Source of the DNA: a phage
Assembly (NCBI GenBank): GCA_014685065.1
Contig: GCA_014685065.1_3930.1
Direction: 5' to 3' (one strand)
Length of the DNA stretch: 64,000 nucleotides
Shown here: in pieces, positions 42,488 through 61,072 of the stretch
Position numbering within the stretch: the stretch's first letter is position 1
How the letters are laid out: each line of letters opens with the position of its first letter
The notes under the pieces: model-generated
The model's database searches: none
What the model was told of the DNA's origin: nothing
What the model saw: only the letters and a program-made list of their open reading frames with translations
Made by a program: the position numbers and the translations under genes

Positions 42488-43591
42488 TTAGCCTTGAGCG
42501 TCAGCACGAACATCTACCAGCAACTGAGGACGAGTACAGTATGGCAGCATGTAAGAGTGAGCTTCGAAGTCAATACCTTCGTCACGGTCTTTTTCGTATT
42601 CGAATACGTATAGTTCCTGACCAAGTGTATTTGCATAACCCATCTTAGGACATGGGCCGTATGCAACTTCAAAGATGTTGTTAGCTTCACCCAACATAGA
42701 TACGTTAGGGAAAGCGTGCCCTACACCAACGTCTGCACCAGCACCATCAATGCTAACCAGAGTATGAACCTTACCACGCTTGTCTTTAAACTTACCGTTA
42801 TACTGGACAAACTTAACGCCACCGTAGTAGAAAGTGTTCATGTGAGCCTGAACGCCGTCGGCACCACCAGTTCTCAGAGAACCAGTAATCTGTTGCCAAG
42901 CCAGCGGAGTCTGCTGTGCAAGATAAGCATCACGAATCTTAGGGTGCTTAGTCAGTTTGCTGAAGAATACACGGTCAACAACTACGTGAATTTCTTCACC
43001 GTTGATTACAGTGCCAGTCTTAGCTTCATCTTCCATGTGCATACGCAGTTCTTCAATAGAAGCGTCGATGTCAGCATTAGGGTTGTCAAGGTCGAAGTAA
43101 ATAGTCTTCTTCTCAACGTCGAACTGCTTGTACAGGTCAGCGTACAGAGTACCACGAGCATCAACAACTTTACCCTTCAGAGCTTGCATAAACAGGAACT
43201 CACGAGTAATATCGAACTTGGTACGAATCTTCATCAGCTTCTTGGCACGTACTACAGCTTCAGTAGTCAGTTCGTTTGCAGTGCCTGGCTGACGTACACC
43301 CTGAATCTCATCAGGAGTAATGCTTTCAACTTCTTTGAAGTACATCATTGGGAAGCTGATTTGACGAACACGCTCAGGTGCGCTAGTCTCTGCTTTACGG
43401 CTATCACGGTCTACCGCATCAAGCAAGCTAACATCCCAATCAGTCAAGTCCATAAGGAAAGTAGTTTGGGTGATTGGTGCTGAACGGAATAGACCTAAGT
43501 TGGAAATATACCCATAAGTATTTGGAATAGACTGGACTTCACCAGTCAGGTCAGCAAGGAAAAATCTGCTTTTTTCAGAATTAGTCAACAT
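42488..43591 (-). CDS. major capsid protein (lambda gpE-like)
   Basis: 367 aa; C-terminal region FEAHSYMLPYCTRPQLLVDVRADAQG resembles the lambda E-family C-terminus; preceded by D-like and protease genes. Confidence 0.8.
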   Translation of the reverse strand: MLTNSEKSRFFLADLTGEVQSIPNTYGYISNLGLFRSAPITQTTFLMDLTDWDVSLLDAVDRDSRKAETSAPERVRQISFPMMYFKEVESITPDEIQGVRQPGTANELTTEAVVRAKKLMKIRTKFDITREFLFMQALKGKVVDARGTLYADLYKQFDVEKKTIYFDLDNPNADIDASIEELRMHMEDEAKTGTVINGEEIHVVVDRVFFSKLTKHPKIRDAYLAQQTPLAWQQITGSLRTGGADGVQAHMNTFYYGGVKFVQYNGKFKDKRGKVHTLVSIDGAGADVGVGHAFPNVSMLGEANNIFEVAYGPCPKMGYANTLGQELYVFEYEKDRDEGIDFEAHSYMLPYCTRPQLLVDVRADAQG

Positions 43592-49732: not shown

Positions 49733-49808
49733 TGGAGAATCCGAAGGGACTCGAACCCTTATAAACCTGTTTTGCAGACAGGCACATAGCCATTTCTGTC
49801 ACGGATTC
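49733..49808 (-). tRNA. tRNA-Cys (anticodon GCA)
   Basis: Hand fold: acceptor GAATCCG/CGGATTC, T-arm GGGTTCGAGTCCC, anticodon loop CTGCAAA, CCA encoded. Confidence 0.6.
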
Positions 49809-49812
49809 AAAT

Positions 49813-49905
49813 TGGAGGAAGATACCAGACTTGAACTGGTACACCGATTTCTCAGCTACTGGCAGTTTAGCAAACTGCTCCCTTACCTTTTAGGGTTAAT
49901 CTTCC
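49813..49905 (-). tRNA. tRNA-Ser (anticodon GCT), class II
   Basis: 93 nt; acceptor GGAAGAT/ATCTTCC, anticodon stem GCAGT/ACTGC with loop TTGCTAA, long variable arm. Confidence 0.55.
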
Positions 49906-49906
49906 A

Positions 49907-50641
49907 TTATTTCTGTAATGCGTTCTTCATTTCTGGTGTTGCAATAGTGTCAATTACACCAGTTTTACAGGCATCATCAAACCAGTCTGGTAAGATACCT
50001 GCTAAGAACCCATTGATATTCGTTTTAAGGTACTCTGCAATAAGGGCAGCTTCTTCTTCAATCATCTGCACAACTTCATCTGCATAAGCTGTAATCTTTG
50101 AGATACCTTCATTAATCTTACTGACAGCTTGGTTAGCTAAATCAGAAACAGTATCAAGACCCTTGTCAATAGCGTCTTGTAAGTCACTTAATACATCGTT
50201 AACACTCTCTAGTGTACTGTTAATCGTATCAATAGCTTTTTGACCATATTCTGTAGCAACACCCATAATACCACTGAACGGTGTACAACCAACTTGTTCT
50301 CCTGCTGCACCCATAACATTGGAATATCCATTTGCTACCTGCATACGTGATGAAAACTCATCAATAGATTTTTGACCGTAGTCTGTCAGGGTCTTAGTAG
50401 TTGCTGTAGTGCTTGTAAGGCTTGTTGTAAAGCTGTTTAGAAGGACTGTTGTAAGTCCAGCAGCAACAAGTTTCTCCTGCATTGTAGGGTCTGTTACAGA
50501 ACTAATAGAGCTTACAAGTGATGTAGAAGCAGCTACGGTTCCACCGAGAACTGCTGCACCAGTAATAAGTGGGTTAGAAAACCCTTTACCGGTTTTTAAG
50601 AGATTAAAAATCTCCTTACCTTGTTCTGTCATCTCTTTCAT
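49907..50641 (-). CDS. hypothetical Ser/Thr/Ala-rich protein embedded in the tRNA array
   Basis: Track ORF trimmed to an internal ATG so it does not overlap the tRNA at 50660-50734; about 244 aa. Confidence 0.4.
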   Translation of the reverse strand: MKEMTEQGKEIFNLLKTGKGFSNPLITGAAVLGGTVAASTSLVSSISSVTDPTMQEKLVAAGLTTVLLNSFTTSLTSTTATTKTLTDYGQKSIDEFSSRMQVANGYSNVMGAAGEQVGCTPFSGIMGVATEYGQKAIDTINSTLESVNDVLSDLQDAIDKGLDTVSDLANQAVSKINEGISKITAYADEVVQMIEEEAALIAEYLKTNINGFLAGILPDWFDDACKTGVIDTIATPEMKNALQK

Positions 50642-50659
50642 TAAGCACCTTTGAAATTG

Positions 50660-50734
50660 GTAGTCCAGTGGGATTTGAACCCTCTTCTCATGTTTTTCAG
50701 ACACGCGCTTTAACCATATAAGCTACTTGGACTA
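50660..50734 (-). tRNA. tRNA-Phe (anticodon GAA)
   Basis: Acceptor TAGTCCA/TGGACTA, T-loop TTCAAAT, anticodon stem CGTGT/ACATG with loop CTGAAAA. Confidence 0.5.
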
Positions 50735-50739
50735 TAAAT

Positions 50740-50815
50740 TGGGGTGACCTACGGGATTTGAACCCGTATAGACCATGTTCACAGCATGGGTCATTGCCAT
50801 TTATGATAAGGCCAC
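50740..50815 (-). tRNA. tRNA-His (anticodon GTG)
   Basis: Anticodon stem CCATG/CATGG, loop CTGTGAA; T-arm ACGGGTTCAAATCCCGT. Confidence 0.6.
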
Positions 50816-50846
50816 ATTTAAGGACTCTCGTAAGAACCCTTAGAAG

Positions 50847-50922
50847 TGGCAGCGGCATAAGGATTTGAACCTTAATAGGACAGCTTCAGAGACTGTTGCA
50901 TTGCCAGTTATGCTATACCGCT
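50847..50922 (-). tRNA. tRNA-Gln (anticodon CTG)
   Basis: D-stem GCAT/ATGC, anticodon loop CTCTGAA, T-arm TAAGGTTCAAATCCTTA. Confidence 0.55.
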
Positions 50923-50927
50923 AAATT

Positions 50928-51006
50928 TGGTACTCCATATCGGATTCGAACCGATACATAACACAGATTTTAAGTCTGGCCTCTCTGCCAATTGGAGTAA
51001 TGGAGC
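50928..51006 (-). tRNA. tRNA with Leu anticodon TAA but short variable arm (class I-like)
   Basis: Acceptor GCTCCAT/ATGGAGT, discriminator A, D-loop AATTGGCA, anticodon loop CTTAAAA, T-arm ATCGGTTCGAATCCGAT; aligns with the tRNAs at 51751 and 52329. Confidence 0.45.
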
Positions 51007-51008
51007 AT

Positions 51009-51084
51009 TGGCGGGGGATGTTGGAATTGAACCAACTTCTTCGATTTCAAAGACCGAGGTTTTAACCTTGTAAACTAATCCCCT
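51009..51084 (-). tRNA. tRNA-Gln (anticodon TTG)
   Basis: Anticodon stem TCGGT/ATCGA, loop CTTTGAA; T-arm GTTGGTTCAATTCCAAC. Confidence 0.55.
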
Positions 51085-51092
51085 TTAAATCT

Positions 51093-51650
51093 TTACTTTC
51101 TCAGTGGATGAATAAAGAATGCCAACATAACTCTTTCCCTTGAGAATGCTCTTTCTTCTGGGACAACACTTTTTAGTTTCCATCCAATATAAATTCTCCA
51201 GTAAAACTGTTTACCAAAGACTTTAATTGATGGGATAAAAGCGAATAATCCCCAAGCATTACTGTTCCACATTAGGAGATAACCTGTCTGATTATCTTCA
51301 GGGTCAGAACTTACGTTGATATTACCTTTCCACTTAGTAACATCTTTTACATCTCTTCCTAATACATGGTAAGAGAAGTTATAAGCTTTGTTTCTCCAGA
51401 GCCATCCGACTCTCTGCATGTAGACACCCAGCTTACCAATCTTTCTAATCTTAGCCCATCGTTCGATATGACCTTCGTCACCATCAATTGGATTGTCATA
51501 TGTCTCCATCCATCTAAATCCGAAAGGTAAGTGGCCTTTCTTCTCACTGTAAAATGGAACTACGAAAGGTGCTAAGATAACTGCTAAGGTTGCTGCTAAT
51601 GGTTCTAGCAAAGCTAGGAAAATCCATGAAGCATATTTTAAATATCTCAT
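51093..51650 (-). CDS. hypothetical membrane protein embedded in the tRNA array
   Basis: 185 aa; N-terminal TM segment (WIFLALLEPLAATLAVILAPFVV), Trp-rich body. Confidence 0.5.
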   Translation of the reverse strand: MRYLKYASWIFLALLEPLAATLAVILAPFVVPFYSEKKGHLPFGFRWMETYDNPIDGDEGHIERWAKIRKIGKLGVYMQRVGWLWRNKAYNFSYHVLGRDVKDVTKWKGNINVSSDPEDNQTGYLLMWNSNAWGLFAFIPSIKVFGKQFYWRIYIGWKLKSVVPEERAFSRERVMLAFFIHPLRK

Positions 51651-51669
51651 CTAAATAGCCTCTTTAAAT

Positions 51670-51745
51670 TGGCGCAGGATAAGGGATTCGAACCCCTATT
51701 AACAGCTTCGTAGACTGTTGCTCTATCCATTTGAACTAATCCTGC
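51670..51745 (-). tRNA. tRNA-Arg (anticodon ACG)
   Basis: D-arm GTTC...GAGC, anticodon stem ACAGT/GCTGT with loop CTACGAA. Confidence 0.55.
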
Positions 51746-51750
51746 AAAAT

Positions 51751-51828
51751 TGGTGTTCCAAGACGGATTCGAACCGTCACTAGTACAAGGTTTGAGCTTG
51801 CATCCTCTGCCAATTGGGATACTGGAAC
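51751..51828 (-). tRNA. tRNA with Leu anticodon CAA but short variable arm (class I-like)
   Basis: Acceptor GTTCCAG/TTGGAAC, discriminator A, D-loop AATTGGCA, anticodon stem GCAAG/CTTGT with loop CTCAAAC. Confidence 0.45.
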
Positions 51829-51829
51829 A

Positions 51830-51904
51830 TGGTACTCACTAAAGGACTTGAACCTTTTTCTTCATCTTGTAAGGGTGGTGTTTTACCATATAAACTAAGC
51901 GAGT
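51830..51904 (-). tRNA. tRNA-Val (anticodon TAC), tentative
   Basis: Good acceptor, D-arm (GTTT/AAAC) and T-arm (AAAGGTTCAAGTCCTTT); anticodon stem is weak, loop read as CTTACAA. Confidence 0.4.
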
Positions 51905-51910
51905 ATGAAA

Positions 51911-51992
51911 GAGGTCTGAAGTTGTGCCGCTAACTCAACTCCGTGGAATTTGTTACGGTCTTCAGTTGACACCAGCGGTCTTTCACTTGACC
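51911..51992. other. tRNA-sized structured element without canonical T-loop
   Basis: Terminal inverted repeat GAGGTC / GACCTC about 80 nt apart with internal hairpins (CCGT...ACGG); no GTTCRA motif on either strand. Confidence 0.35.
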
Positions 51993-51999
51993 TCTGAAT

Positions 52000-52076
52000 T
52001 GGTGCTGCTCACAGGACTCGAACCTGCATTTCCATCCTTACAAGGGATGTGTAATAGCCAATTATACGAAAGCAGC
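52000..52076 (-). tRNA. tRNA-Thr (anticodon TGT)
   Basis: Perfect anticodon stem CATCC/GGATG, loop CTTGTAA. Confidence 0.6.
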
Positions 52077-52082
52077 ATTGTT

Positions 52083-52157
52083 TGGAGCATCCAGAGGGAA
52101 TCGAACCCTCAACCTCAGTTTGGAAGACTGTAATTTTCCCGTTTAAACTATGGATGC
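52083..52157 (-). tRNA. tRNA-Gly (anticodon TCC)
   Basis: Acceptor GCATCCA/TGGATGC, anticodon loop CTTCCAA, T-arm GAGGGTTCGATTCCCTC. Confidence 0.55.
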
Positions 52158-52163
52158 ACTAAT

Positions 52164-52240
52164 TGGTGGAGAAGCAGGGAATTGAACCCTGTACTTAAGT
52201 TTGCAAAACTTATGTTTTAACCATGTAAACTACATCCCCA
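52164..52240 (-). tRNA. tRNA-Ala (anticodon TGC)
   Basis: D-stem GTTT/AAAC, anticodon stem TAAGT/ACTTA with loop TTTGCAA. Confidence 0.6.
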
Positions 52241-52245
52241 ATGTT

Positions 52246-52321
52246 TGGTACAGGTGGAGGGAATTGAACCCATCGTCTTACTGATTAAGAGTCAGCCGCA
52301 TAACCATTTTGCTACACCTGC
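52246..52321 (-). tRNA. tRNA-Lys (anticodon CTT)
   Basis: Anticodon loop CTCTTAA; paralogous in sequence to the Lys(TTT) tRNA at 53966. Confidence 0.5.
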
Positions 52322-52328
52322 ATTAATT

Positions 52329-52405
52329 TGGTACACCTAGAGAGATTCGAACTCACACTGAGCAGATTCTAAGTCTGCTGCCTCTACCAATTGGGCTATA
52401 GGTGC
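52329..52405 (-). tRNA. tRNA with Leu anticodon TAG but short variable arm (class I-like)
   Basis: Acceptor GCACCTA/TAGGTGT, discriminator A, D-loop AATTGGTA, perfect anticodon stem GCAGA/TCTGC with loop CTTAGAA, variable region only about 5 nt. Confidence 0.5.
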
Positions 52406-52663
52406 ATTAAATCTTTTTAGAGAACTTCTAAGAACCTAAGCAACAAGGTTCCACAACAAGCTGTAATAACCTTAGAAGCCCTCTAAAAAGACCTAATTTG
52501 GTCTTTGCATAGTCTTGTTTAATCCGGTGACTAGAACCTTTGGAGAGCTTGATATTATCTCTTCTCCGTGACACCTACTAGGTGCTTTACTGTGCGTGTA
52601 CGACAATACACGAGGGATACCAAAGCAACATCCGAATGAAGCTTGGCTTTAAATCTTATTAGG
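52406..52663 (-). ncRNA. structured non-coding spacer within the tRNA array (candidate small stable RNA)
   Basis: No ORF and no tRNA; several hairpins (CTTCTAAG...CTTAGAAG 8 bp; AGACC-taattt-GGTCT; CGTGTA-cgacaa-TACACG). Confidence 0.3.
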
Positions 52664-52751
52664 CGGTAAGTAAAGGAGTCGAACCCTCACCGTATCTCTA
52701 CAGTGGCAACTGTTTTCAAGACAGTTTGGCTACCATTAGCCGCTACCTACC
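52664..52751 (-). tRNA. tRNA-Ser (anticodon TGA), class II
   Basis: 88 nt; perfect anticodon stem ACTGT/ACAGT with loop CTTGAAA; long variable arm; CCA not encoded. Confidence 0.55.
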
Positions 52752-52764
52752 CCTAATAAGACTT

Positions 52765-52847
52765 TGGCATGGGACGGAGGAGTTGAACCACTTTGAAACG
52801 GTTTTGGAGGCCGTTGCTCATGCCTTAGAGTCTTAACATCGTCCCAC
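52765..52847 (-). tRNA. tRNA-Trp (anticodon CCA), atypical
   Basis: 83 nt; acceptor GTGGGAC/GTCCCAT, anticodon region ACGGC-CTCCAAA-ACCGT; T-stem imperfect. Confidence 0.4.
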
Positions 52848-52989
52848 ACTATAATTCGAAGCTTACCGTATTTTCACAACACTGTAAAGCCCCTTCTCAG
52901 ATTATTTACATGTTCTGGAAAACATGAGATACAGACCACCTCCTTACACGGAGACCCGATAAGGTCGTCTAAGCAATCTGCTAACTATT

Positions 52990-53066
52990 TGGCACACCCT
53001 ACAGGATTCGAACCTGTAACTAACGATTTAGAAGACCGTTGCTCTATCCAATTGAACTAAGGGTGC
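52990..53066 (-). tRNA. tRNA-Arg (anticodon TCT)
   Basis: Anticodon stem ACGGT/ATCGT, loop CTTCTAA; T-arm ACAGGTTCGAATCCTGT. Confidence 0.55.
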
Positions 53067-53313
53067 ATTAATCTTTAAAGACTCTCTTAGAAAGCCCTTA
53101 AAGATGCCCACCTTATTAATCATACCGTGGGCGAGTACGCCAAATTCTTTGATGAGGGATTGGAAGACCTCACTGGTGTTTAGCCTATCAAGCTACTGCC
53201 AGAAAAACATTGTCGTTTGCATTTATTTTAAATTTGCAAAATAGACGCTACGCAACGAAAACTAAGGTTACTATAAAGTGGTCACATCTCAATGTCAACA
53301 ACTTTATTGAAAT

Positions 53314-53389
53314 TGGTACTGTGAGAAGGATTCGAACCTTCTGCCTTTCGGTTATCAGCCGAATGCACATCCATATGTGCTTTCACAGC
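53314..53389 (-). tRNA. tRNA-Ile (anticodon GAT)
   Basis: Perfect anticodon stem TTCGG/CCGAA, loop CTGATAA. Confidence 0.6.
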
Positions 53390-53868
53390 ATTGTTACCCC
53401 TTCGTGTACCTCTCTGTGGCAATTTGCACACAGTAATACACACTTATCAACTTCAGACTTCATTACCTCTATAGAGAAGTGTTTTTGTCCTACTGTGAAG
53501 TCCTTTGTATTAGGGTCTAAGTGGTGAAACTCTAAAGCCTTTATGCACTTATTGTATCCACAAATTGAGCAACAACCACCTTTGTAATCAACTAAAACCC
53601 TCTTAAGTTTGTCACGAGACTTTTTAACGTGTTGTGACTTCGCTTTCTTTTCTTCATCGGGGTTTTTGTATTGTTTCAGAATACCATTTGAAATACATTC
53701 ATCACAATACTTTCTTGATTTTGGTGTTTGTTTTCCACATGAATGACAAGAGCCTTCTTGTCTTCTTTTTGGATGACTCTTGTTGTTTACCCTTGCAGCA
53801 CAAGAGCGTGAACAATATTTTCCGCCTTTAACGGCTTTGTTGTCACAATCTTTATTAGCACAAAACAT
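53383..53868 (-). CDS. HNH homing endonuclease
   Basis: Trimmed to ATG 53866-53868 (RBS GGTGA) so it does not overlap tRNAs; Cys-rich N-terminal region; C-terminal HNH motif EFHHLDPNTKD...CANCHREVH. Confidence 0.7.
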   Translation of the reverse strand: MFCANKDCDNKAVKGGKYCSRSCAARVNNKSHPKRRQEGSCHSCGKQTPKSRKYCDECISNGILKQYKNPDEEKKAKSQHVKKSRDKLKRVLVDYKGGCCSICGYNKCIKALEFHHLDPNTKDFTVGQKHFSIEVMKSEVDKCVLLCANCHREVHEGVTML

Positions 53869-53884
53869 AATATCACCAACGAAT

Positions 53885-53961
53885 TGGAGGTTCAGATGGG
53901 AATCGAACCCACATTCATAGGGCTTATGAGACCCCTGCATTACCTTATCTGCGACTGAACC
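53885..53961 (-). tRNA. tRNA-Met (anticodon CAT)
   Basis: Acceptor GGTTCAG/CTGAACC perfect; anticodon stem GGGGT/GCCCT, loop CTCATAA. Confidence 0.55.
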
Positions 53962-53965
53962 ATAT

Positions 53966-54041
53966 TGGTAGAAGTGGAGGGATTCGAACCCATCGCCTGT
54001 CAGATTAAAAGTCTGCCGCATCACCATTCTGCTACACTTCC
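53966..54041 (-). tRNA. tRNA-Lys (anticodon TTT)
   Basis: Anticodon loop CTTTTAA; T-arm ATGGGTTCGAATCCCTC. Confidence 0.5.
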
Positions 54042-54045
54042 ATTA

Positions 54046-54181
54046 AAATTATCTTTGTAGATAAGCTATCCAGACTTGCTTAAGGTCTGTAGCGATGTGC
54101 CTTGTTGGGTTTAAATCTAGAATTTACCCTTTCACTCTTTGTGGTCGCATACTCACAGGTAAGCTTAATAACTTATCTACA
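54046..54181. repeat. 19-bp perfect inverted repeat flanking a ~98-nt spacer
   Basis: aattatctttgtagataag (54046-54064) is the exact reverse complement of cttatctacaaagataatt (54163-54181); inner CAGAC...GTCTG hairpin. Confidence 0.55.
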
Positions 54182-54241
54182 AAGATAATTACCAGACCGT
54201 TGTTTATCATCTTAAGTGCTACCATTACACCAACTCGACAT

Positions 54242-54266
54242 CTGCCGAGTGAAGGAATCGAACCTT
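54242..54266 (-). other. tRNA 3'-half-like fragment (T-arm plus acceptor 3' strand only)
   Basis: Canonical GAAGGTTCGATTCCTTC T-arm followed by ACTCGGC-A, but no complementary 5' acceptor strand found within 120 nt. Confidence 0.3.
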
Positions 54267-54497
54267 CGCCTTTTCTTTACCGGAGAAATAGATTGTTTAA
54301 GTTTTGCTGTAAACGGTCTTCTGTAAATTTGTTGAGCCAGACCAAGTTTTAAATTTTCAAAATTAAATTGGCTTGAAATTTCATACATTCTTGCTGTATT
54401 TGGTCTTCTGCTCCTTTAAAGAATACTCGTAAGAACCCTTTAAGGGAGGGGCTAAATAGCCCTCTCAAAACATCATCTTGAAATACTTATTATAATT

Positions 54498-54574
54498 TGG
54501 CGGTTACGAAGGGATTTGAACCCTCATCATCTCCCGTGACAGGGGAGTATTTTAACCAGTTAAACTACATAACC
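54498..54574 (-). tRNA. tRNA-Asp (anticodon GTC)
   Basis: Perfect anticodon stem CTCCC/GGGAG, loop CTGTCAC; D-stem GTTT/AAAT. Confidence 0.6.
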
Positions 54575-54580
54575 TTTATT

Positions 54581-54668
54581 TGGTGTGCCGTGTAGGAGTC
54601 GAACCTACCGAGTCTCAATGACAAGGGATTTACAGTCCCCACCGCTACCATCTACGGGATAACGACAC
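54581..54668 (-). tRNA. tRNA-Tyr (anticodon GTA), class II
   Basis: 88 nt; anticodon stem GGGGA/TCCCT, loop CTGTAAA; long variable arm. Confidence 0.5.
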
Positions 54669-54737
54669 ATTTAATTTCTATTCAGGCTAAGGACTTGCAC
54701 CTTACAAATCGGTGAGCAATCGCTTCTCTCCTAAATT

Positions 54738-54814
54738 TGGCGGTTAGTCAGGGATTCGAACCCTGTGCCATTCGCTTAACAGGCGACCGCACATACCTTA
54801 TGTGCTTCCTAACC
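54738..54814 (-). tRNA. tRNA-Asn (anticodon GTT)
   Basis: Anticodon loop CTGTTAA; T-arm CAGGGTTCGAATCCCTG. Confidence 0.5.
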
Positions 54815-54891
54815 TTAATACATTGCCAGACCGTGTTTTTTCTTTTATCCGCAAAAAGTATTTTGTTGCTGAATACGGTCTTCTGCAAAAT

Positions 54892-54968
54892 TGGAGGCGG
54901 GTGCAGGAGTCGAACCTGCCGATACCATGCTAATGAGACATGTGAGACGCCCTTTCTCTATACCCGCA
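54892..54968 (-). tRNA. tRNA with anticodon CAT (Met or Ile2), tentative
   Basis: Anticodon stem CATGT/GCATG, loop CTCATTA (position 37 is T, unusual); 1-72 mismatch in acceptor. Confidence 0.4.
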
Positions 54969-55059
54969 ATTCTTAATGACCAGACCAAATCTCTTCTTTG
55001 TCCGATTTACCTTCAGATGAATAAGATTAAGTTTGCTGTAATTGGTCTTCTGTCAAAAC

Positions 55060-55137
55060 TGGCGTTCCAGAAGGGATTTGAACCCTCAAATATCCACTTT
55101 GAAAGAGTGGTGACTTTACCATTTTGTCTACTGGAAC
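55060..55137 (-). tRNA. tRNA-Glu (anticodon TTC)
   Basis: Perfect acceptor GTTCCAG/CTGGAAC and anticodon stem CCACT/AGTGG, loop CTTTCAA. Confidence 0.6.
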
Positions 55138-55144
55138 ATTAATT

Positions 55145-55224
55145 TGGTCTCCGTTGAAGGATTTGAACCCTCGACCCCTTGCTCCCAAAGCAAGTGCTGC
55201 TAAACCAAACTGAGCTAAACGGAG
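55145..55224 (-). tRNA. tRNA-Pro (anticodon TGG)
   Basis: Perfect acceptor CTCCGTT/AACGGAG and anticodon stem CTTGC/GCAAG, loop TTTGGGA with G37. Confidence 0.6.
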
Positions 55225-55389: not shown

Positions 55390-56805
55390 TTACCAGATGT
55401 AACGGTCAATCATTACTGCTTTGAGCATTACGCTGATTGGGTCAAACTTCTCACCACCAAGCAGAGCTTTTAAAGTGGCTGGAGAGAACCCTGATACCAT
55501 TGCTACACCATTATCCTTAACAGATACTTCGCAAGTACCATTACGGTTTGCTAAGTACCAGAATACCAGTTGTGGCATTTTGTATCCAGCTTTTTTGTAC
55601 TTACTACGAATCGCTTCAAAGTTTGTACGACCATTAGCTCCATCAACCTGATTGAACTCCATATCAGAGAAGATAATAAGCTTACTTGGCATATCTTTCT
55701 GAGTCAAGTTGTTTCTCTTACCTGTTTCAAGAATGCGGTCAAAAGCTGCTTGTAAGTTAGTTGAGCCATATTCAACGTGTCGCATCACCTGACGATGACG
55801 GTTTCGTAAATCACCACTCAGTTCGATGAAGTGAGGGTTTGTCGAATAAACCATCAACTCATTCTTAAAGCAACCTGTATTGCGTTCTGCTACATACAAG
55901 GCAAGTGATACACCAATATCCAGAGCAGTAATGGAGCCAAAATTCACCCAAGACATTGAACTTGATACATCAGACATACACAAGATGTTTTCACCTTCTG
56001 CCATCCAGTTTGGTAGTGCTTTCCACTGCTCATTAGCAACATCTGCATTACCATACTTGACAGATTTAATCACATCGTATGGGTAAACAGCACCAGCGTT
56101 AATCTTAGTCTCACCTTTTGATAAGGACTCGATGTAAGCTTTGTAACGCTCTCCATCTTTACGGTTAAACAGTTTTTGGTAACGTGCAGCAGCAAGTGAA
56201 GGAATCTTACTGTAGTCAATCTTACCAAACTCATTAGCAGAGATTTTTTGCTCAACTGTATCAGATAGTGCAGACAACAGTGTGCGATACTCTTTCTCAC
56301 TCAAGTTTGCAAACTTGCAGAAACGTTTTACAAACTGTTTGTGACGTGGTTTTACTCGTGGTAACCACTTAGCTGCTAAACCTGCTGTTGCAGGGTCTAG
56401 TAAAGCTGCTTCTAAATGTTTGAAGGCATCTGTCTCGAAACGAGTACCTACAAAGATTTTGAAGTCATCAAAGCGACCAAGCTCTGCAATCTTATCCATA
56501 ATGCGAAGAACCTGCGTAGGCTCTAAAACTTTATCTTCAATCGCTTGAAGTAAAACAGTTCGGAAAGCTTTACGCTCACCCATACCTTCTCGTACATCTC
56601 GCATATGCAGTAAAATACGAACTGCAACATCAACATCCTCATGCAAAGCTTTGTAGAACAAGTCTGGTAAGATTTCTACATTGCTACGGCTGGAACCAGC
56701 AGCTTTGTAAAAGTCCACAAGAGCAGACATTGATGAAGTATGGTTTACAGCACCATTTTCAGTTCGACCTGCATGAAGGTGCGCATGTTTAAATAATTCG
56801 CTCAT
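55390..56805 (-). CDS. von Willebrand factor A (vWA) domain protein, possibly Ro60/TROVE-like
   Basis: 471 aa; C-terminal region has a MIDAS-like DxSxS motif (MSDVSSSMS) and later LIIFSDMEF; N-terminal half is helical. Adjacent to the tRNA array. Confidence 0.5.
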   Translation of the reverse strand: MSELFKHAHLHAGRTENGAVNHTSSMSALVDFYKAAGSSRSNVEILPDLFYKALHEDVDVAVRILLHMRDVREGMGERKAFRTVLLQAIEDKVLEPTQVLRIMDKIAELGRFDDFKIFVGTRFETDAFKHLEAALLDPATAGLAAKWLPRVKPRHKQFVKRFCKFANLSEKEYRTLLSALSDTVEQKISANEFGKIDYSKIPSLAAARYQKLFNRKDGERYKAYIESLSKGETKINAGAVYPYDVIKSVKYGNADVANEQWKALPNWMAEGENILCMSDVSSSMSWVNFGSITALDIGVSLALYVAERNTGCFKNELMVYSTNPHFIELSGDLRNRHRQVMRHVEYGSTNLQAAFDRILETGKRNNLTQKDMPSKLIIFSDMEFNQVDGANGRTNFEAIRSKYKKAGYKMPQLVFWYLANRNGTCEVSVKDNGVAMVSGFSPATLKALLGGEKFDPISVMLKAVMIDRYIW

Positions 56806-56885: not shown

Positions 56886-57257
56886 TTATTTTTTGAGGGT
56901 TGCAACAGCAGAGAACGTTGGTTTGTTATCTGTCTGAGACTGACCGCCGTTATCAGGGGTCTTCTTAGTGTCTGCTGCAATTGCTTTCATCTCACCTGCT
57001 GAGTGAGTCATGATAGTTTTACCGACCTCAATCATACTCTTGATGGTTACGTCATCTGTGTTTAACCCGAACTCTGCAAGCTTAGCCGCGTCCCTTGTAA
57101 CAATCGCCTCAAACAGCTTTGCAGCGAACTCAGCAGAATTATCAATGGTCAGTTGAGCTTTTACGAGTGAGCTTTTGTTACGAGAGCCTTTTGGTCTTCC
57201 AGATGGGTTTCCAGACTGGCCTTTTTTAAACTGGCCTTTGTTTGTTCTGTTTTTCAT
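56886..57257 (-). CDS. small basic protein with AT-hook-like GRP motif
   Basis: 123 aa; N-terminus KGQFKKGQSGNPSGRPKGSRNK. Confidence 0.45.
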   Translation of the reverse strand: MKNRTNKGQFKKGQSGNPSGRPKGSRNKSSLVKAQLTIDNSAEFAAKLFEAIVTRDAAKLAEFGLNTDDVTIKSMIEVGKTIMTHSAGEMKAIAADTKKTPDNGGQSQTDNKPTFSAVATLKK

Positions 57258-57668: not shown

Positions 57669-57883
57669 AAATCGCAGATATTATAGATTTATATCAAACT
57701 GCAAAGAGTCATGGCTATATAACCTCAATTGGAAAGAATAGTCACTATGATGCTTTGACTGGAATGTATTTCAGGGCAATGGCTCAATCTAGTGAACAAC
57801 ACTTAATGGTTTCTTCCAGTGAGTTTACTTCGTTTCTCTATTGCAGCAAAATTATAAACCGCAGGAGAACTGAAAAATGTTAA
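57650..57883 (+). CDS. hypothetical protein
   Basis: 77 aa. Confidence 0.4.
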   Translation: MCSSQLEIADIIDLYQTAKSHGYITSIGKNSHYDALTGMYFRAMAQSSEQHLMVSSSEFTSFLYCSKIINRRRTEKC

Positions 57884-58467
57884 CAGTAAGTTTTAATTAC
57901 AATAGTGATGGCTCTGTATCAATTAATTCACCATATGCAAATGACCTGCTTAAAGAGCTAGTCAATCAGTGTGATAGAGGTCTTCACTATGTTCAAAATT
58001 CTTTTAAACAGAAGACTATTGCTAATAACTTGATGCGTGTAACAGTAACGGCATCGAATCAAAATTATGACTTTGATAGTGAAAGTCCGTACTCATTAGT
58101 TGCGCTTGGAGAGAGCAGCCAATTCAAACTTGTTTGCCACGACTCAGAAACATTCCTTAAGGTATTTTCCAACCTTATCCATAATAATAAGTACAGCTAC
58201 GTTGATGGTAGTGTAAATTTCTATCCAGCAAACTATACATGTTTGTTGGTTGATAATATGAGAAAAAGTAAGCAAGAGCCTACGGAAATTTCATTTGATG
58301 TGAACTCTAGTCCAGACGCAGAAACAAGTAAGAACTTTGATATGAGTTACGCATTGTCACTCAGTAAGAAATCCGAGTTCATTGATTATGTCAATGGATT
58401 TGGTTTTAAGTTTGATGAGAGTATGAATCTTAAAAAACTTAAGAACCTACTTAAGACCAAAGCTTAA
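57877..58467 (+). CDS. hypothetical protein
   Basis: 196 aa. Confidence 0.5.
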   Translation: MLTVSFNYNSDGSVSINSPYANDLLKELVNQCDRGLHYVQNSFKQKTIANNLMRVTVTASNQNYDFDSESPYSLVALGESSQFKLVCHDSETFLKVFSNLIHNNKYSYVDGSVNFYPANYTCLLVDNMRKSKQEPTEISFDVNSSPDAETSKNFDMSYALSLSKKSEFIDYVNGFGFKFDESMNLKKLKNLLKTKA

Positions 58468-58514
58468 GTGTGAATAGGGGCTGATGCCCCTTTAACTATT
58501 TATAAGGATATTTA

Positions 58515-58886
58515 ATGAAAGCTAAGAGTGCAAAAGACTTTTATTGCTTCCTACAATCCTATATCAATTCCGTGCAAAATGGTGAAAGATACAACCTTAA
58601 TGATGTTATCCCAACACCTTTGACATGGAGACTCAGTAAATGGCCTGAAGAAGACATTACACCAACAAGCAAACAACACACCTACAAACCTGAAATCAAT
58701 ATTCCAGACTCTGAGAACCTATTATATCCAATGTTCCATATTGTTGGTCTTGGGAGATTCCTTATGGATATTCAGTATGTAATTGGTAAAGGTTATAAGG
58801 TTAAAGGCATTGTTGTTGGTGATGTATCTCCACACCACAAAGGTTATTTTAGACTAAACGCACATTTAGAGGCTAAAAAGAAATGA
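58515..58886 (+). CDS. hypothetical protein, paralog of N-terminal domain of next gene
   Basis: 123 aa; shares KAKxxxDFxxFxxxxIxxVxxGxRY...W(P)EEDI...YKP...LLY...FxMDxQYxI with 58883-59767. Confidence 0.5.
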   Translation: MKAKSAKDFYCFLQSYINSVQNGERYNLNDVIPTPLTWRLSKWPEEDITPTSKQHTYKPEINIPDSENLLYPMFHIVGLGRFLMDIQYVIGKGYKVKGIVVGDVSPHHKGYFRLNAHLEAKKK

Positions 58887-59767
58887 TTAAAGCAAAGACT
58901 TACCCAGACTTTAAAGAGTTTGTGAAGGGCTTCATTGCAAACGTAAAGGCTGGTAAGAGATATGATTTTAGAACATATCAAGAGGCTATTTTACCACTTA
59001 CCTATAGTTCATATTGGCCTGAAGCTGATATTGCAGAAGTTGAGAAGTTTGACTATAAACCAGACTACAAAGTTCCATTTAGTGATGAATTGCTTTACAG
59101 TGTTGGTGCACAGATGAGAACTGCTGATTTCTTCATGGATTTGCAGTATGCAATCATCAATGGTAAAGATGTTGACACAATTTACTGTGAATGGTTGGCA
59201 AGAGTTAAGCCGTTCTCAATGTTGAATGCTAAGTTGAAAGATGTCATCACACCACCATCAATCACTCAGCAACCAACAAACCAAACAGTTAATGAGGGTG
59301 ATACACTCACTCTAAGTGTTCTCGCAACTAACGCCACTGGATATCAGTGGAAGAAGGATGATGAGGATATCTCAAGTGCCACTTCTGCAACTTACACAAA
59401 ACAGTCAGTAGCACCTTCTGATGCTGGCTCATACACTTGTGTTGTATCTGGAGAGGCTGGAACAAGTGTTACCTCAGATGCGGCAACAGTTACTGTGAAT
59501 GCACTTCCAGTAATCACTCAACAGCCAGCAAATCAAGAAATCACTGAAGGTGAGACCTTAACGCTGAATGTTGTGGCTACTGGTGCAACAGGTTATCAGT
59601 GGAAGAAAGGTGAGGAAGTCATCCCAGACGCAACTGCTGCAACTTACACCAAAGAAGGTGCAACCGCTGCTGATGCAGGAAGCTACACCTGTGTAGTTAC
59701 TGGTGCAGGTGGCTCTGTAACATCTAATGCAGCAACAGTTACTGTTAACCCAGCAGGGGAGGCATAA
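58883..59767 (+). CDS. protein with N-terminal paralogous domain and two C-terminal Ig-like repeats
   Basis: 294 aa; two tandem ~90-aa repeats with ITQQP..N...EG.TLTL.V.AT.ATGYQWKK......AT.ATYTK.....DAGSYTCVV.G..GSVTS.AATVTV. Confidence 0.55.
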   Translation: MIKAKTYPDFKEFVKGFIANVKAGKRYDFRTYQEAILPLTYSSYWPEADIAEVEKFDYKPDYKVPFSDELLYSVGAQMRTADFFMDLQYAIINGKDVDTIYCEWLARVKPFSMLNAKLKDVITPPSITQQPTNQTVNEGDTLTLSVLATNATGYQWKKDDEDISSATSATYTKQSVAPSDAGSYTCVVSGEAGTSVTSDAATVTVNALPVITQQPANQEITEGETLTLNVVATGATGYQWKKGEEVIPDATAATYTKEGATAADAGSYTCVVTGAGGSVTSNAATVTVNPAGEA

Positions 59768-60231: not shown

Positions 60232-60241
60232 TATCTTCATA

Positions 60242-60266
60242 GGCTCCTTCGGGAGCCTTTTTTATT
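60242..60266 (+). terminator. rho-independent terminator after endolysin
   Basis: GGCTCC-ttcg-GGAGCC followed by TTTTTTATTTT. Confidence 0.65.
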
Positions 60267-60282
60267 TTCTAAGGAGAAAACT

Positions 60283-60681
60283 ATGAAACTTTGGGCTAGT
60301 GACTTTGGAACTTTTAAGTACACTCGTAATGGCTCGCTTGTACGCATTGTCGGAAACAATGTGGTTTCAAGAGGTGACAAGGTGTATACACGGTTTACTG
60401 TAGAGCTTGTTGAGCTGTCTCCTATTGAGTCTGTTAACAATGGTCTGTTCAAGTTTGAGACTTACAATGTCAATGAACATGGACAATTCAACCCTCTTGG
60501 TGAAAGTGGACTTGATATTATTTCAGAACACCCATTGACAAAAGAGCAACTTGCAGGTTACTATAAAACTGTTCTGGAAAGGCAGTTAGCAACACATGAA
60601 CAAGAAGCTAACTACCATCTACATCATTGCGAAACTTTAAGAGCAAAAATCGAACAAGCAGAGAGAGGTTTTTATGAATAA
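60283..60681 (+). CDS. hypothetical protein
   Basis: 132 aa; RBS AAGGAGA upstream. Confidence 0.5.
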   Translation: MKLWASDFGTFKYTRNGSLVRIVGNNVVSRGDKVYTRFTVELVELSPIESVNNGLFKFETYNVNEHGQFNPLGESGLDIISEHPLTKEQLAGYYKTVLERQLATHEQEANYHLHHCETLRAKIEQAERGFYE

Positions 60682-61072
60682 AGATGTTAGAGATATCCAA
60701 GTAAAAGTTGACACGTTTGGCCATGATGGTCGAGAAGATATAGGTTTTGCCGATGCAGTAATATACAAGTGCAACGGAGATTTATTCCTTCAGTTTACAG
60801 GGTCTGGAAGCACACTTCATCGAGTACGAGATGATGAAGATGGTTGTCCTGTATTTGGTTGGTTTGACAGGGAGTTCCCTCTTTACGCAATCCACTACCC
60901 AGATGGTGGAGAAGACTGGACAACCCAATCCATCTTTGATGAGCTTAATGGTGTTCCAGTTGAGCAAGAAGAGCAAGAGCCTGTTGAACTTACCTTCACT
61001 TTTATCAAAGAAGAGAAAGTAGGTGACTTGTCAGTAACTGAAGCAATTCAAGTCTCACAGGTGATTCGTTAA
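60674..61072 (+). CDS. hypothetical protein
   Basis: 132 aa. Confidence 0.5.
   Translation: MNKDVRDIQVKVDTFGHDGREDIGFADAVIYKCNGDLFLQFTGSGSTLHRVRDDEDGCPVFGWFDREFPLYAIHYPDGGEDWTTQSIFDELNGVPVEQEEQEPVELTFTFIKEEKVGDLSVTEAIQVSQVIR

Follow-up and report, generated by a model that had tools for sequence, protein, structure and literature searches.

We analysed a stretch of phage DNA of 64,000 nucleotides (contig GCA_014685065.1_3930.1 of NCBI GenBank assembly GCA_014685065.1; hereafter, the window) and focus here on two adjacent open reading frames (ORFs) that lie directly upstream of its endolysin gene. ORF A encodes a protein of 123 amino acids (aa), and ORF B encodes a protein of 294 aa whose N-terminal part is related to ORF A and is followed by two immunoglobulin (Ig)-like domains. 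We call the domain common to both proteins the capsid-binding domain (CapBD). On sequence, the window belongs to a Felix O1-like myophage of the genus Felixounavirus. The region of about 2.5 kb around the two genes matches 252 phage records at 80-98% identity, nearly all of them Felixounavirus or Mooglevirus from Escherichia, Salmonella, Shigella and Citrobacter hosts. Because the arrangement recurs in 231 of these 252 records at coverage of at least 80%, it is not a product of chance. Both ORFs stand in the ORF table at exactly the coordinates given by a first-pass annotation, a model's reading of the letters without database searches. The features that concern the two proteins are the following.

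58515-58886, + strand: ORF A, a CapBD alone with no Ig domain; 123 aa, 14.3 kDa
58883-59767, + strand: ORF B, the predicted Hex-Dec gene; 294 aa
58883-59242, + strand: CapBD of ORF B, residues 1-120, from phmmer matches to 9ncf_S and 9c2d_S and a control structure model
59252-59503, + strand: first Ig-like domain of ORF B, residues ~124-207, from Pfam Ig_3, I-set and Ig_2 and the repeat alignment
59504-59767, + strand: second Ig-like domain of ORF B (residues ~208-289; Pfam Ig_2 at residues 209-288), followed by a short tail, PAGEA, and the stop codon
59767-60231, + strand: endolysin, a GH24 phage lysozyme of 154 aa (PF00959, E-value 9.1e-41), labelled as a lysin in relatives
42488-43591, - strand: major capsid protein, the predicted docking partner of the CapBD, from phmmer matches to 9ncf_A (E 9e-245) and 9c2d_A (E 2.5e-232)

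The stop codon of ORF A overlaps the start codon of ORF B in the sequence ATGA, and the stop codon of ORF B overlaps the lysozyme start in TAATG. ORF A, ORF B and the lysozyme gene are one unit, with overlapping coding ends, that finishes at a single terminator.

ORF B and the capsid decoration protein Hex-Dec

In phmmer searches of the PDB, ORF B matches chain S of entry 9ncf over its full length ('Immunoglobulin-like domain protein', 460 aa; E 3.9e-245), as well as chain S of entries 9c2d and 9c3a ('Tail protein', 372 aa; E 2.7e-190). Entry 9ncf is the capsid reconstruction of phage Bas63 (PMC12609058), and 9c2d and 9c3a are from phage Sf14 (PMC11821841). The CapBD of ORF B is 96-98% identical to that of the Bas63 protein and 88% identical to that of the Sf14 protein, and its AlphaFold2 model, our control, reaches a predicted local distance difference test score (pLDDT) of 78.5 and a template modelling (TM) score of 0.80 to 9ncf_S, with no other match in the PDB. 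ORF B also carries Arg79 and Arg107, which in Sf14 gp20 pair with Asp221 of the major capsid protein (PMC11821841), and the capsid protein of the window, about 98% identical to that of Bas63, keeps the aspartate at residue 221. In addition, gp36 of Felix O1, a protein of 294 aa and 31,610 Da (31.6 kDa), was recovered from caesium chloride-purified virions with 14 peptides covering 44% of its length (PMC3185647); ORF B has the same length and a calculated mass of 31,597 Da. By these matches, ORF B is assigned as the orthologue of Bas63 Hex-Dec, Sf14 gp20 and Felix O1 gp36, and nothing found in this analysis contradicts the assignment. The feature is thus already explained by two cryo-electron microscopy (cryo-EM) papers of 2025, together with earlier virion proteomics and a knockout screen.

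Hex-Dec and gp20 are monomeric and sit at the centres of capsid hexamers; on the T=9 shell they are confined to the pentamer-proximal (facet-edge) hexamers and leave the true three-fold hexamers unoccupied (PMC12609058, PMC11821841). By orthology, the CapBD of ORF B, about 120 aa long, would plug the centre of the 60 pentamer-proximal hexamers of a T=9 capsid, with Arg79 and Arg107 pairing with Asp221 of the capsid protein, and the two Ig-like domains, a strongly acidic part of the protein (isoelectric point, pI, 4.05), would form a short, outward-pointing fibre. For Hex-Dec, a part in adhesion or aggregation like that of Hoc has been put forward, as a proposal only (PMC12609058, PMC11821841). 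The first-pass annotation had likewise suggested adhesion; in the sense of virion adhesion by capsid fibres this coincides with the published proposal, while adhesion by a protein of the lysis machinery does not hold. In Bas63, knockout of g124 (bas63_0124), the orthologue of ORF B, is tolerated on three hosts and matters more on E. coli S17-1 (PMC11482910). The ratio of nonsynonymous to synonymous substitution rates (dN/dS) of the ORF B CapBD is 0.044.

Pfam searches with ORF B return only Ig-type families, in two stretches at residues ~124-207 and 209-289, with Ig_3 (E 5.9e-23), Ig_2 (E 7.4e-20) and I-set (E 3e-17) each matching both. The two repeats are less alike than the near-identity first ascribed to them, with 58 of 83 aligned residues identical (~70%) and 66% identity at the DNA level. 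The second Ig-like domain matches PDB chains 5lxk_A and 8zvi_a, named 'Decoration protein' (E ~1e-11), which we take to be pb10 of phage T5. T5 pb10 has a single Ig domain, and its binding domain shows no detectable similarity to that of ORF B. PHROG families labelled 'Hoc-like head decoration' match residues 122-292 of ORF B only, outside the CapBD. Relatives carry between one and four Ig domains, in proteins of 210, 294, 377 and 461 aa, a variation already described in the cryo-EM papers (PMC12609058, PMC11821841). The expectation that Ig-like domains belong on the virion surface was well placed: the repeats score as Ig-like, and the orthologues of ORF B are seen on capsids by cryo-EM and in virions by mass spectrometry.

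ORF B has in common with the Hex-Dec proteins of Bas63, Sf14 and Felix O1 the Arg79/Arg107 pair, Ig repeats of the I-set type and the same slot before the endolysin gene, and it differs from those of Bas63 and Sf14 only in having two Ig domains, against four in Bas63 and three in Sf14. It works like Hoc of phage T4 insofar as both are dispensable monomers at hexamer centres that extend an outward string of Ig domains as an acidic fibre. However, the capsid-binding domain of Hoc is C-terminal and is reported to be topologically distinct (PMC12609058), whereas that of ORF B is N-terminal; the two binding domains are not homologous, and Hex-Dec occupies only a subset of the hexamers.

According to labels in GenBank, UniRef and PHROGs, both ORFs would be tail proteins. 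The PHROG of ORF B, phrog_3995, is labelled 'tail protein', as are many database records, and Felix O1 gp36 was first called 'major tail protein' (PMC3185647). However, the label stems from the Ig domains, a type of domain also found on tail-tube proteins, and cryo-EM shows a capsid location for the orthologues (9NCF, 9C2D), so that a tail assignment is hardly credible; the authors of the Bas63 study call the annotation wrong (PMC12609058). They also point out that the Bas63 gene is over 10 kb away from the structural module and that most genomes mis-annotate it as 'tail protein' (PMC12609058). In the window, roughly 15 kb and a cluster of tRNA genes separate ORF B from the capsid protein gene, which is on the opposite strand. 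Hundreds of ORF B orthologues still carry the tail label in GenBank and PHROGs despite the two structures of 2025, which gives the assignment a value for annotation. In Salmonella phage ST11 (L034, 3369-4250), the Hex-Dec gene is split into three short ORFs next to an intact ORF A, reflecting either a natural null allele or sequencing errors.

Gene order around the endolysin gene

The order of the 196-aa ORF that precedes ORF A, one or two CapBD genes and the lysozyme gene is conserved across Ounavirinae. In Felix O1, the lysis protein is followed by a 294-aa ORF and then a 123-aa ORF; in Sf14, the lysin gp19 is followed by gp20 and gp21 in the same order; and in Bas63, the endolysin bas63_0123 is followed by the Ig-like protein bas63_0124 and by bas63_0125. 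Only one CapBD gene is present in each of the 39 Ounavirinae records that are more distant. In Kolesnikvirus phages of Erwinia (e.g., Harbringer, L035, 2941-3555), the single gene encodes a 204-aa protein in which the CapBD is fused to Big_2, and in Hafnia phage SarahDanielle (L036, 3001-3966), a 321-aa protein with an unclassified extension of 200 aa. The single CapBD protein of the P0097 lineage (L040, 5001-5462) has no Ig domains and only a Lys/Ser-rich tail. CapBD genes occupy the same slot before the lysozyme gene even in a divergent metagenomic phage of 87 kb. Because this order is conserved well beyond the genus, we take the neighbourhood of the lysin to be inherited gene order and not a sign of shared function. 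The joining of the CapBD to different partners within a fixed slot before the lysozyme looks like domain shuffling on a fixed anchor.

These comparisons bear on a reading that starts from the possible cell-wall-binding or adhesion role suggested by the first-pass annotation, namely that ORF B, lying directly upstream of the lysozyme gene and overlapping it, belongs to the lysis module and acts with the endolysin as a cell-wall-binding or envelope-adhesion factor. Apart from this position, the evidence speaks against such a role. The orthologues decorate capsids and are detected in virions, and Pfam finds no cell-wall-binding domain in ORF B (Ig families only) and no family at all in ORF A. Moreover, reverse transcription PCR in Felix O1 shows the lysin transcript (ORF 35) peaking at 25 min, whereas ORFs 36 and 37 peak with the morphogenesis genes at 60 min (PMC3185647). 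We therefore regard a part for ORF B in lysis as highly improbable.

ORF A, a paralogue consisting of the CapBD alone

The first-pass annotation had noted a conserved scaffold common to the 123-aa protein and the N-terminus of the next. BLASTP confirms the relationship, with 38% identity over 101 aa (E 3e-16), although the extent proposed, 110 aa, falls short of the roughly 120 aa over which phmmer aligns the domain (about residues 2-118). In the PDB, phmmer matches ORF A only to the CapBD of 9ncf_S and 9c2d_S (E ~1e-11, residues 2-118), and ORF A itself has no chain there. Pfam assigns it to no family, and its PHROG, phrog_4463, is of unknown function. Its AlphaFold2 model (pLDDT 68.6; predicted TM score 0.69) consists of two helices and a beta-hairpin, and in a Foldseek search of the PDB only 9ncf_S and 9c2d_S were significant (TM 0.68-0.71, probability 1.00), the next match having an E-value of 0.6. 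Read against the TM score of 0.80 of the ORF B control, the model predicts the same fold for ORF A along the entire CapBD. ORF A and the CapBD have 32 invariant positions in common, including the motifs WPExDI, F-MD-QY and LNA-L, as well as Lys109. ORF A ends 3-5 residues past the CapBD and has no Ig-like extension.

Compared with the CapBD of Hex-Dec, ORF A thus has the same predicted fold but neither the Ig fibre nor the two arginines, and it belongs to a separate, faster-evolving clade. Its homologues in named phages are Felix O1 gp37, Sf14 gp21 and bas63_0125. Throughout the A clade, an invariant block reads LLYPMFHIVGLG.FLMDIQYV, where B has QMRTADFFMDLQY, and a block of 25 residues does not vary; the motif LYPMFHIVGLG, also invariant, stands at the site where B has Arg79. 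Apart from the two phage chains, neither Pfam nor a Foldseek search of the PDB revealed a relative of the CapBD fold. Among 1.84 billion representative proteins, a profile search gathered a CapBD family of 13 clusters (E at most 1e-3); the distant members were reached by this profile search, while the hits of a word-index protein search with the ORF B CapBD were all close forms of 210 aa.

The duplication appears to be old. Neighbour-joining separates an A clade from a B clade, with 100% bootstrap support for each, and the divergent metagenomic phage carries an A-type protein (P0092, 45% identical to ORF A) and a B-type protein (P0093) upstream of its lysozyme. From the two clades, which include the metagenomic pair, we conclude that the A/B duplication predates the split of these lineages. 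Monophyly of A and B relative to the Kolesnikvirus proteins has 3.5% support, which may be a long-branch effect. Collectively, these results identify ORF A as a full-length, Ig-less CapBD paralogue and an ancient tandem duplicate of the CapBD alone. We estimate the probability of the overall explanation, that ORF B is Hex-Dec, ORF A is a duplicate of its CapBD and the lysin next to them is a matter of gene order, at about 0.8.

Of 253 Felixounavirus or Mooglevirus records, 233 have ORF A at full length and about 20 lack it, and it is found in 31 of the 34 loci that we examined. Its dN/dS is 0.12 (at dS above 1), compared with 0.044 for the CapBD of ORF B, 0.07 for the lysozyme and 0.065 for the 196-aa ORF, and these rates mark ORF A as a functional gene under purifying selection with somewhat relaxed constraint. 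In two records (L019, 2808-3001; Escherichia phage REP8, L032, 2805-2998), ORF A is a pseudogene that has lost its start codon and about 220 nt by an internal deletion, next to an intact Hex-Dec gene; because the breakpoints are shared, this decay was a single event. Salmonella phage SP3_SHan-2021 (L033, MW296865.1, 3001-3879) encodes instead a 292-aa in-frame chimera in which residues 1-47 of A are joined to the rest of B. The junction is the shared WPE(E)DI motif, where recombination between the tandem paralogues removed one copy, and three phage records fall in this identity band. ORF A has thus been lost in nature on at least two occasions. From these natural variants, it follows that ORF A is dispensable and that a phage can be viable with the N-terminal helix of A in place of that of B.

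What ORF A does is a more tentative matter. It is possible that ORF A, made late from the message that also carries ORF B, still acts at the centres of capsid hexamers or on Hex-Dec itself during late assembly, as a fibre-less cap or competitor that would be transient or sub-stoichiometric, would fall below detection in mature virions and would be useful to the phage yet dispensable. In Felix O1, the homologous ORF 37 is transcribed late, with a peak at 60 min alongside the morphogenesis genes (PMC3185647). We favour this role, but consider the odds to be somewhat against it, given that part of the evidence points the other way. The position aligned with Arg79 is a glycine (Gly78) and that aligned with Arg107 is His or Gln throughout the A clade, so that docking could be different; the confidence of the ORF A model is only moderate; and the decay of ORF A in one lineage and its removal by recombination in another imply that any role is non-essential. 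Furthermore, the 17 virion proteins identified in Felix O1 do not include gp37, although proteins of 9.7-13.7 kDa were detected (PMC3185647), Sf14 gp21 is not mentioned in the paper that combined cryo-EM with mass spectrometry (PMC11821841), and the reconstructions of Bas63 and Sf14 report no density on the other, three-fold hexamers (PMC12609058, PMC11821841).

The evidence on the location of ORF A is negative but weak. The Felix O1 list was drawn up with a cut-off of at least 25% coverage, which the portal protein only just reached (PMC3185647). ORF A yields seven good tryptic peptides, and its sequences in the window include DFYCFLQSYINSVQNGER, YNLNDVIPTPLTWR, FLMDIQYVIGK and GIVVGDVSPHHK. 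A study of phage VpaE1 names gp54, gp58 and gp68 as the only additions to the Felix O1 virion set, none of them from this region; its text implies, indirectly, that ORF40c of VpaE1 was not detected. The word 'paralog' is absent from both structural papers (PMC12609058, PMC11821841), and ORF A appears not to be discussed in the cryo-EM work on Hex-Dec, which makes it a modest lead.

Alternatively, ORF A could have kept the old fold while acquiring a function that has nothing to do with the capsid, for example in countering host defences or modifying the host. Such a change of function would fit with a protein that evolves at about three times the rate of the ORF B CapBD, retains neither contact arginine, is unseen in Felix O1 virions (PMC3185647) and varies widely in net charge, with a pI from 5.1 to 9.3 across the A clade. 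Still, we judge it unlikely, since all lineages with ORF A keep it in strict linkage and translational coupling with Hex-Dec, since it is transcribed late with the morphogenesis genes in Felix O1 (PMC3185647), and since the Bas63 genes named as countering or triggering defences do not include it. The same variation in pI, which is 9.3 for ORF A in the window, led us to drop the idea that its charge complements an acidic hexamer pore, as the property is not conserved.

Less probable still is that ORF A is a permanent, low-copy virion protein that plugs the 20 true three-fold hexamers, the two paralogues dividing the hexamer sites between them. The predicted fold is the same over the whole domain, ORF A is transcribed late and translationally coupled to Hex-Dec, and the A-clade motif LYPMFHIVGLG lies exactly at the Arg79 site of B; the Sf14 paper, for its part, ties the site specificity of Hex-Dec to a shifted Asp221 in the three-fold hexamers (PMC11821841). 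Yet both cryo-EM papers report that these hexamers lack density (PMC12609058, PMC11821841), and ORF A is missing from the Felix O1 virion list in spite of its tryptic peptides (PMC3185647) and is not listed for Sf14 (PMC11821841). Icosahedral averaging would smear a monomer that sits on a three-fold axis, and this averaging, together with coverage cut-offs like that of the Felix O1 study, would account for such a plug having been missed. We rate as a longer shot the related idea that ORF A is a second, fibre-less plug for either the 20 three-fold hexamers or procapsid hexamers, the pair reading the geometry of quasi-equivalent hexamers. Should ORF A bind hexamers, it would offer a tool for learning how decoration proteins tell quasi-equivalent hexamers apart, and it might double as a capsid-display scaffold; if it does not, it would be a structural domain recruited to another job.

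That ORF A is a functionless duplicate heading for loss is very unlikely. The pseudogenes of L019 and REP8, the A::B recombination in SP3_SHan-2021 and the absence of ORF A from about 20 of the 253 records would all fit with decay, but they have to be set against a dN/dS well below 1, a frame that is intact in lineages only 45% identical and the 25-residue block that is invariant across the A clade.

Finally, a -1 ribosomal frameshift could fuse A to B into a protein with two CapBDs, as ORF B is read in frame -1 with respect to ORF A and a T-AAA-AAG run (58874-58886) places AAAAAG 4 nt before the ORF A stop codon. We rejected this candidate as barely credible: the run is confined to Felixounavirus and absent from Mooglevirus-type and metagenomic A/B junctions, neither gp37 peptides nor a species of ~46 kDa were reported for Felix O1 (PMC3185647), and the GAGG ahead of the ATG resembles a normal Shine-Dalgarno sequence.

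Neighbouring features of the window

Three further features border the ORF A, ORF B and lysozyme unit.

57877-58467, + strand: ORF of 196 aa, 5' neighbour of ORF A; phrog_4034, no assigned function
58477-58503, + strand: G+C hairpin GGGGCTGATGCCCC with a T-rich tail, read from the sequence between the 196-aa ORF and ORF A
60241-60268, + strand: intrinsic-terminator-like hairpin with a T run, from a terminator scan, closing the ORF A, ORF B and lysozyme unit

The hairpin at 58477-58503 has the same sequence as a rho-independent terminator listed in Table 2 of the Felix O1 study (PMC3185647), and a simple terminator scan of the window did not flag it. It is kept even in the lineages with a decayed ORF A (L019, REP8). 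A GGA Shine-Dalgarno sequence lies 3' of this hairpin, ahead of ORF A. As a candidate for a late-promoter motif shared between genes, the sequence CTATTTATAAGG upstream of ORF A occurs only once in the window, a count reached by 29 of 100 shuffles, and a sigma-70 scan of the window gave fewer sites than in shuffles.

The structural module is on the minus strand, at ~26-49 kb of the window, and 26 tRNA genes (49733-55224, - strand) lie between its terminase end and the region of ORFs A and B. Downstream of the unit, a 132-aa ORF (60674-61072, + strand) has a homologue labelled 'D-alanyl-D-alanine carboxypeptidase' in JLBYU28_152 and ST11; a Pfam search found no family at E up to 1, and the label looks unsupported. 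The 196-aa ORF has a distant homologue in L040 with a faint Phage_Inh_N match, and the transcript of its Felix O1 homologue, gp38, peaks at 25 min (PMC3185647). Adjoining the tRNA cluster is a gene for a 471-aa protein with DUF2828 and DUF7788 (55390-56805, - strand), labelled 'RNA-binding protein' in REP8, and it is followed by a gene for a 123-aa DUF5681 protein (56886-57257, - strand); this pair is conserved in the distant relatives L038 and L040.

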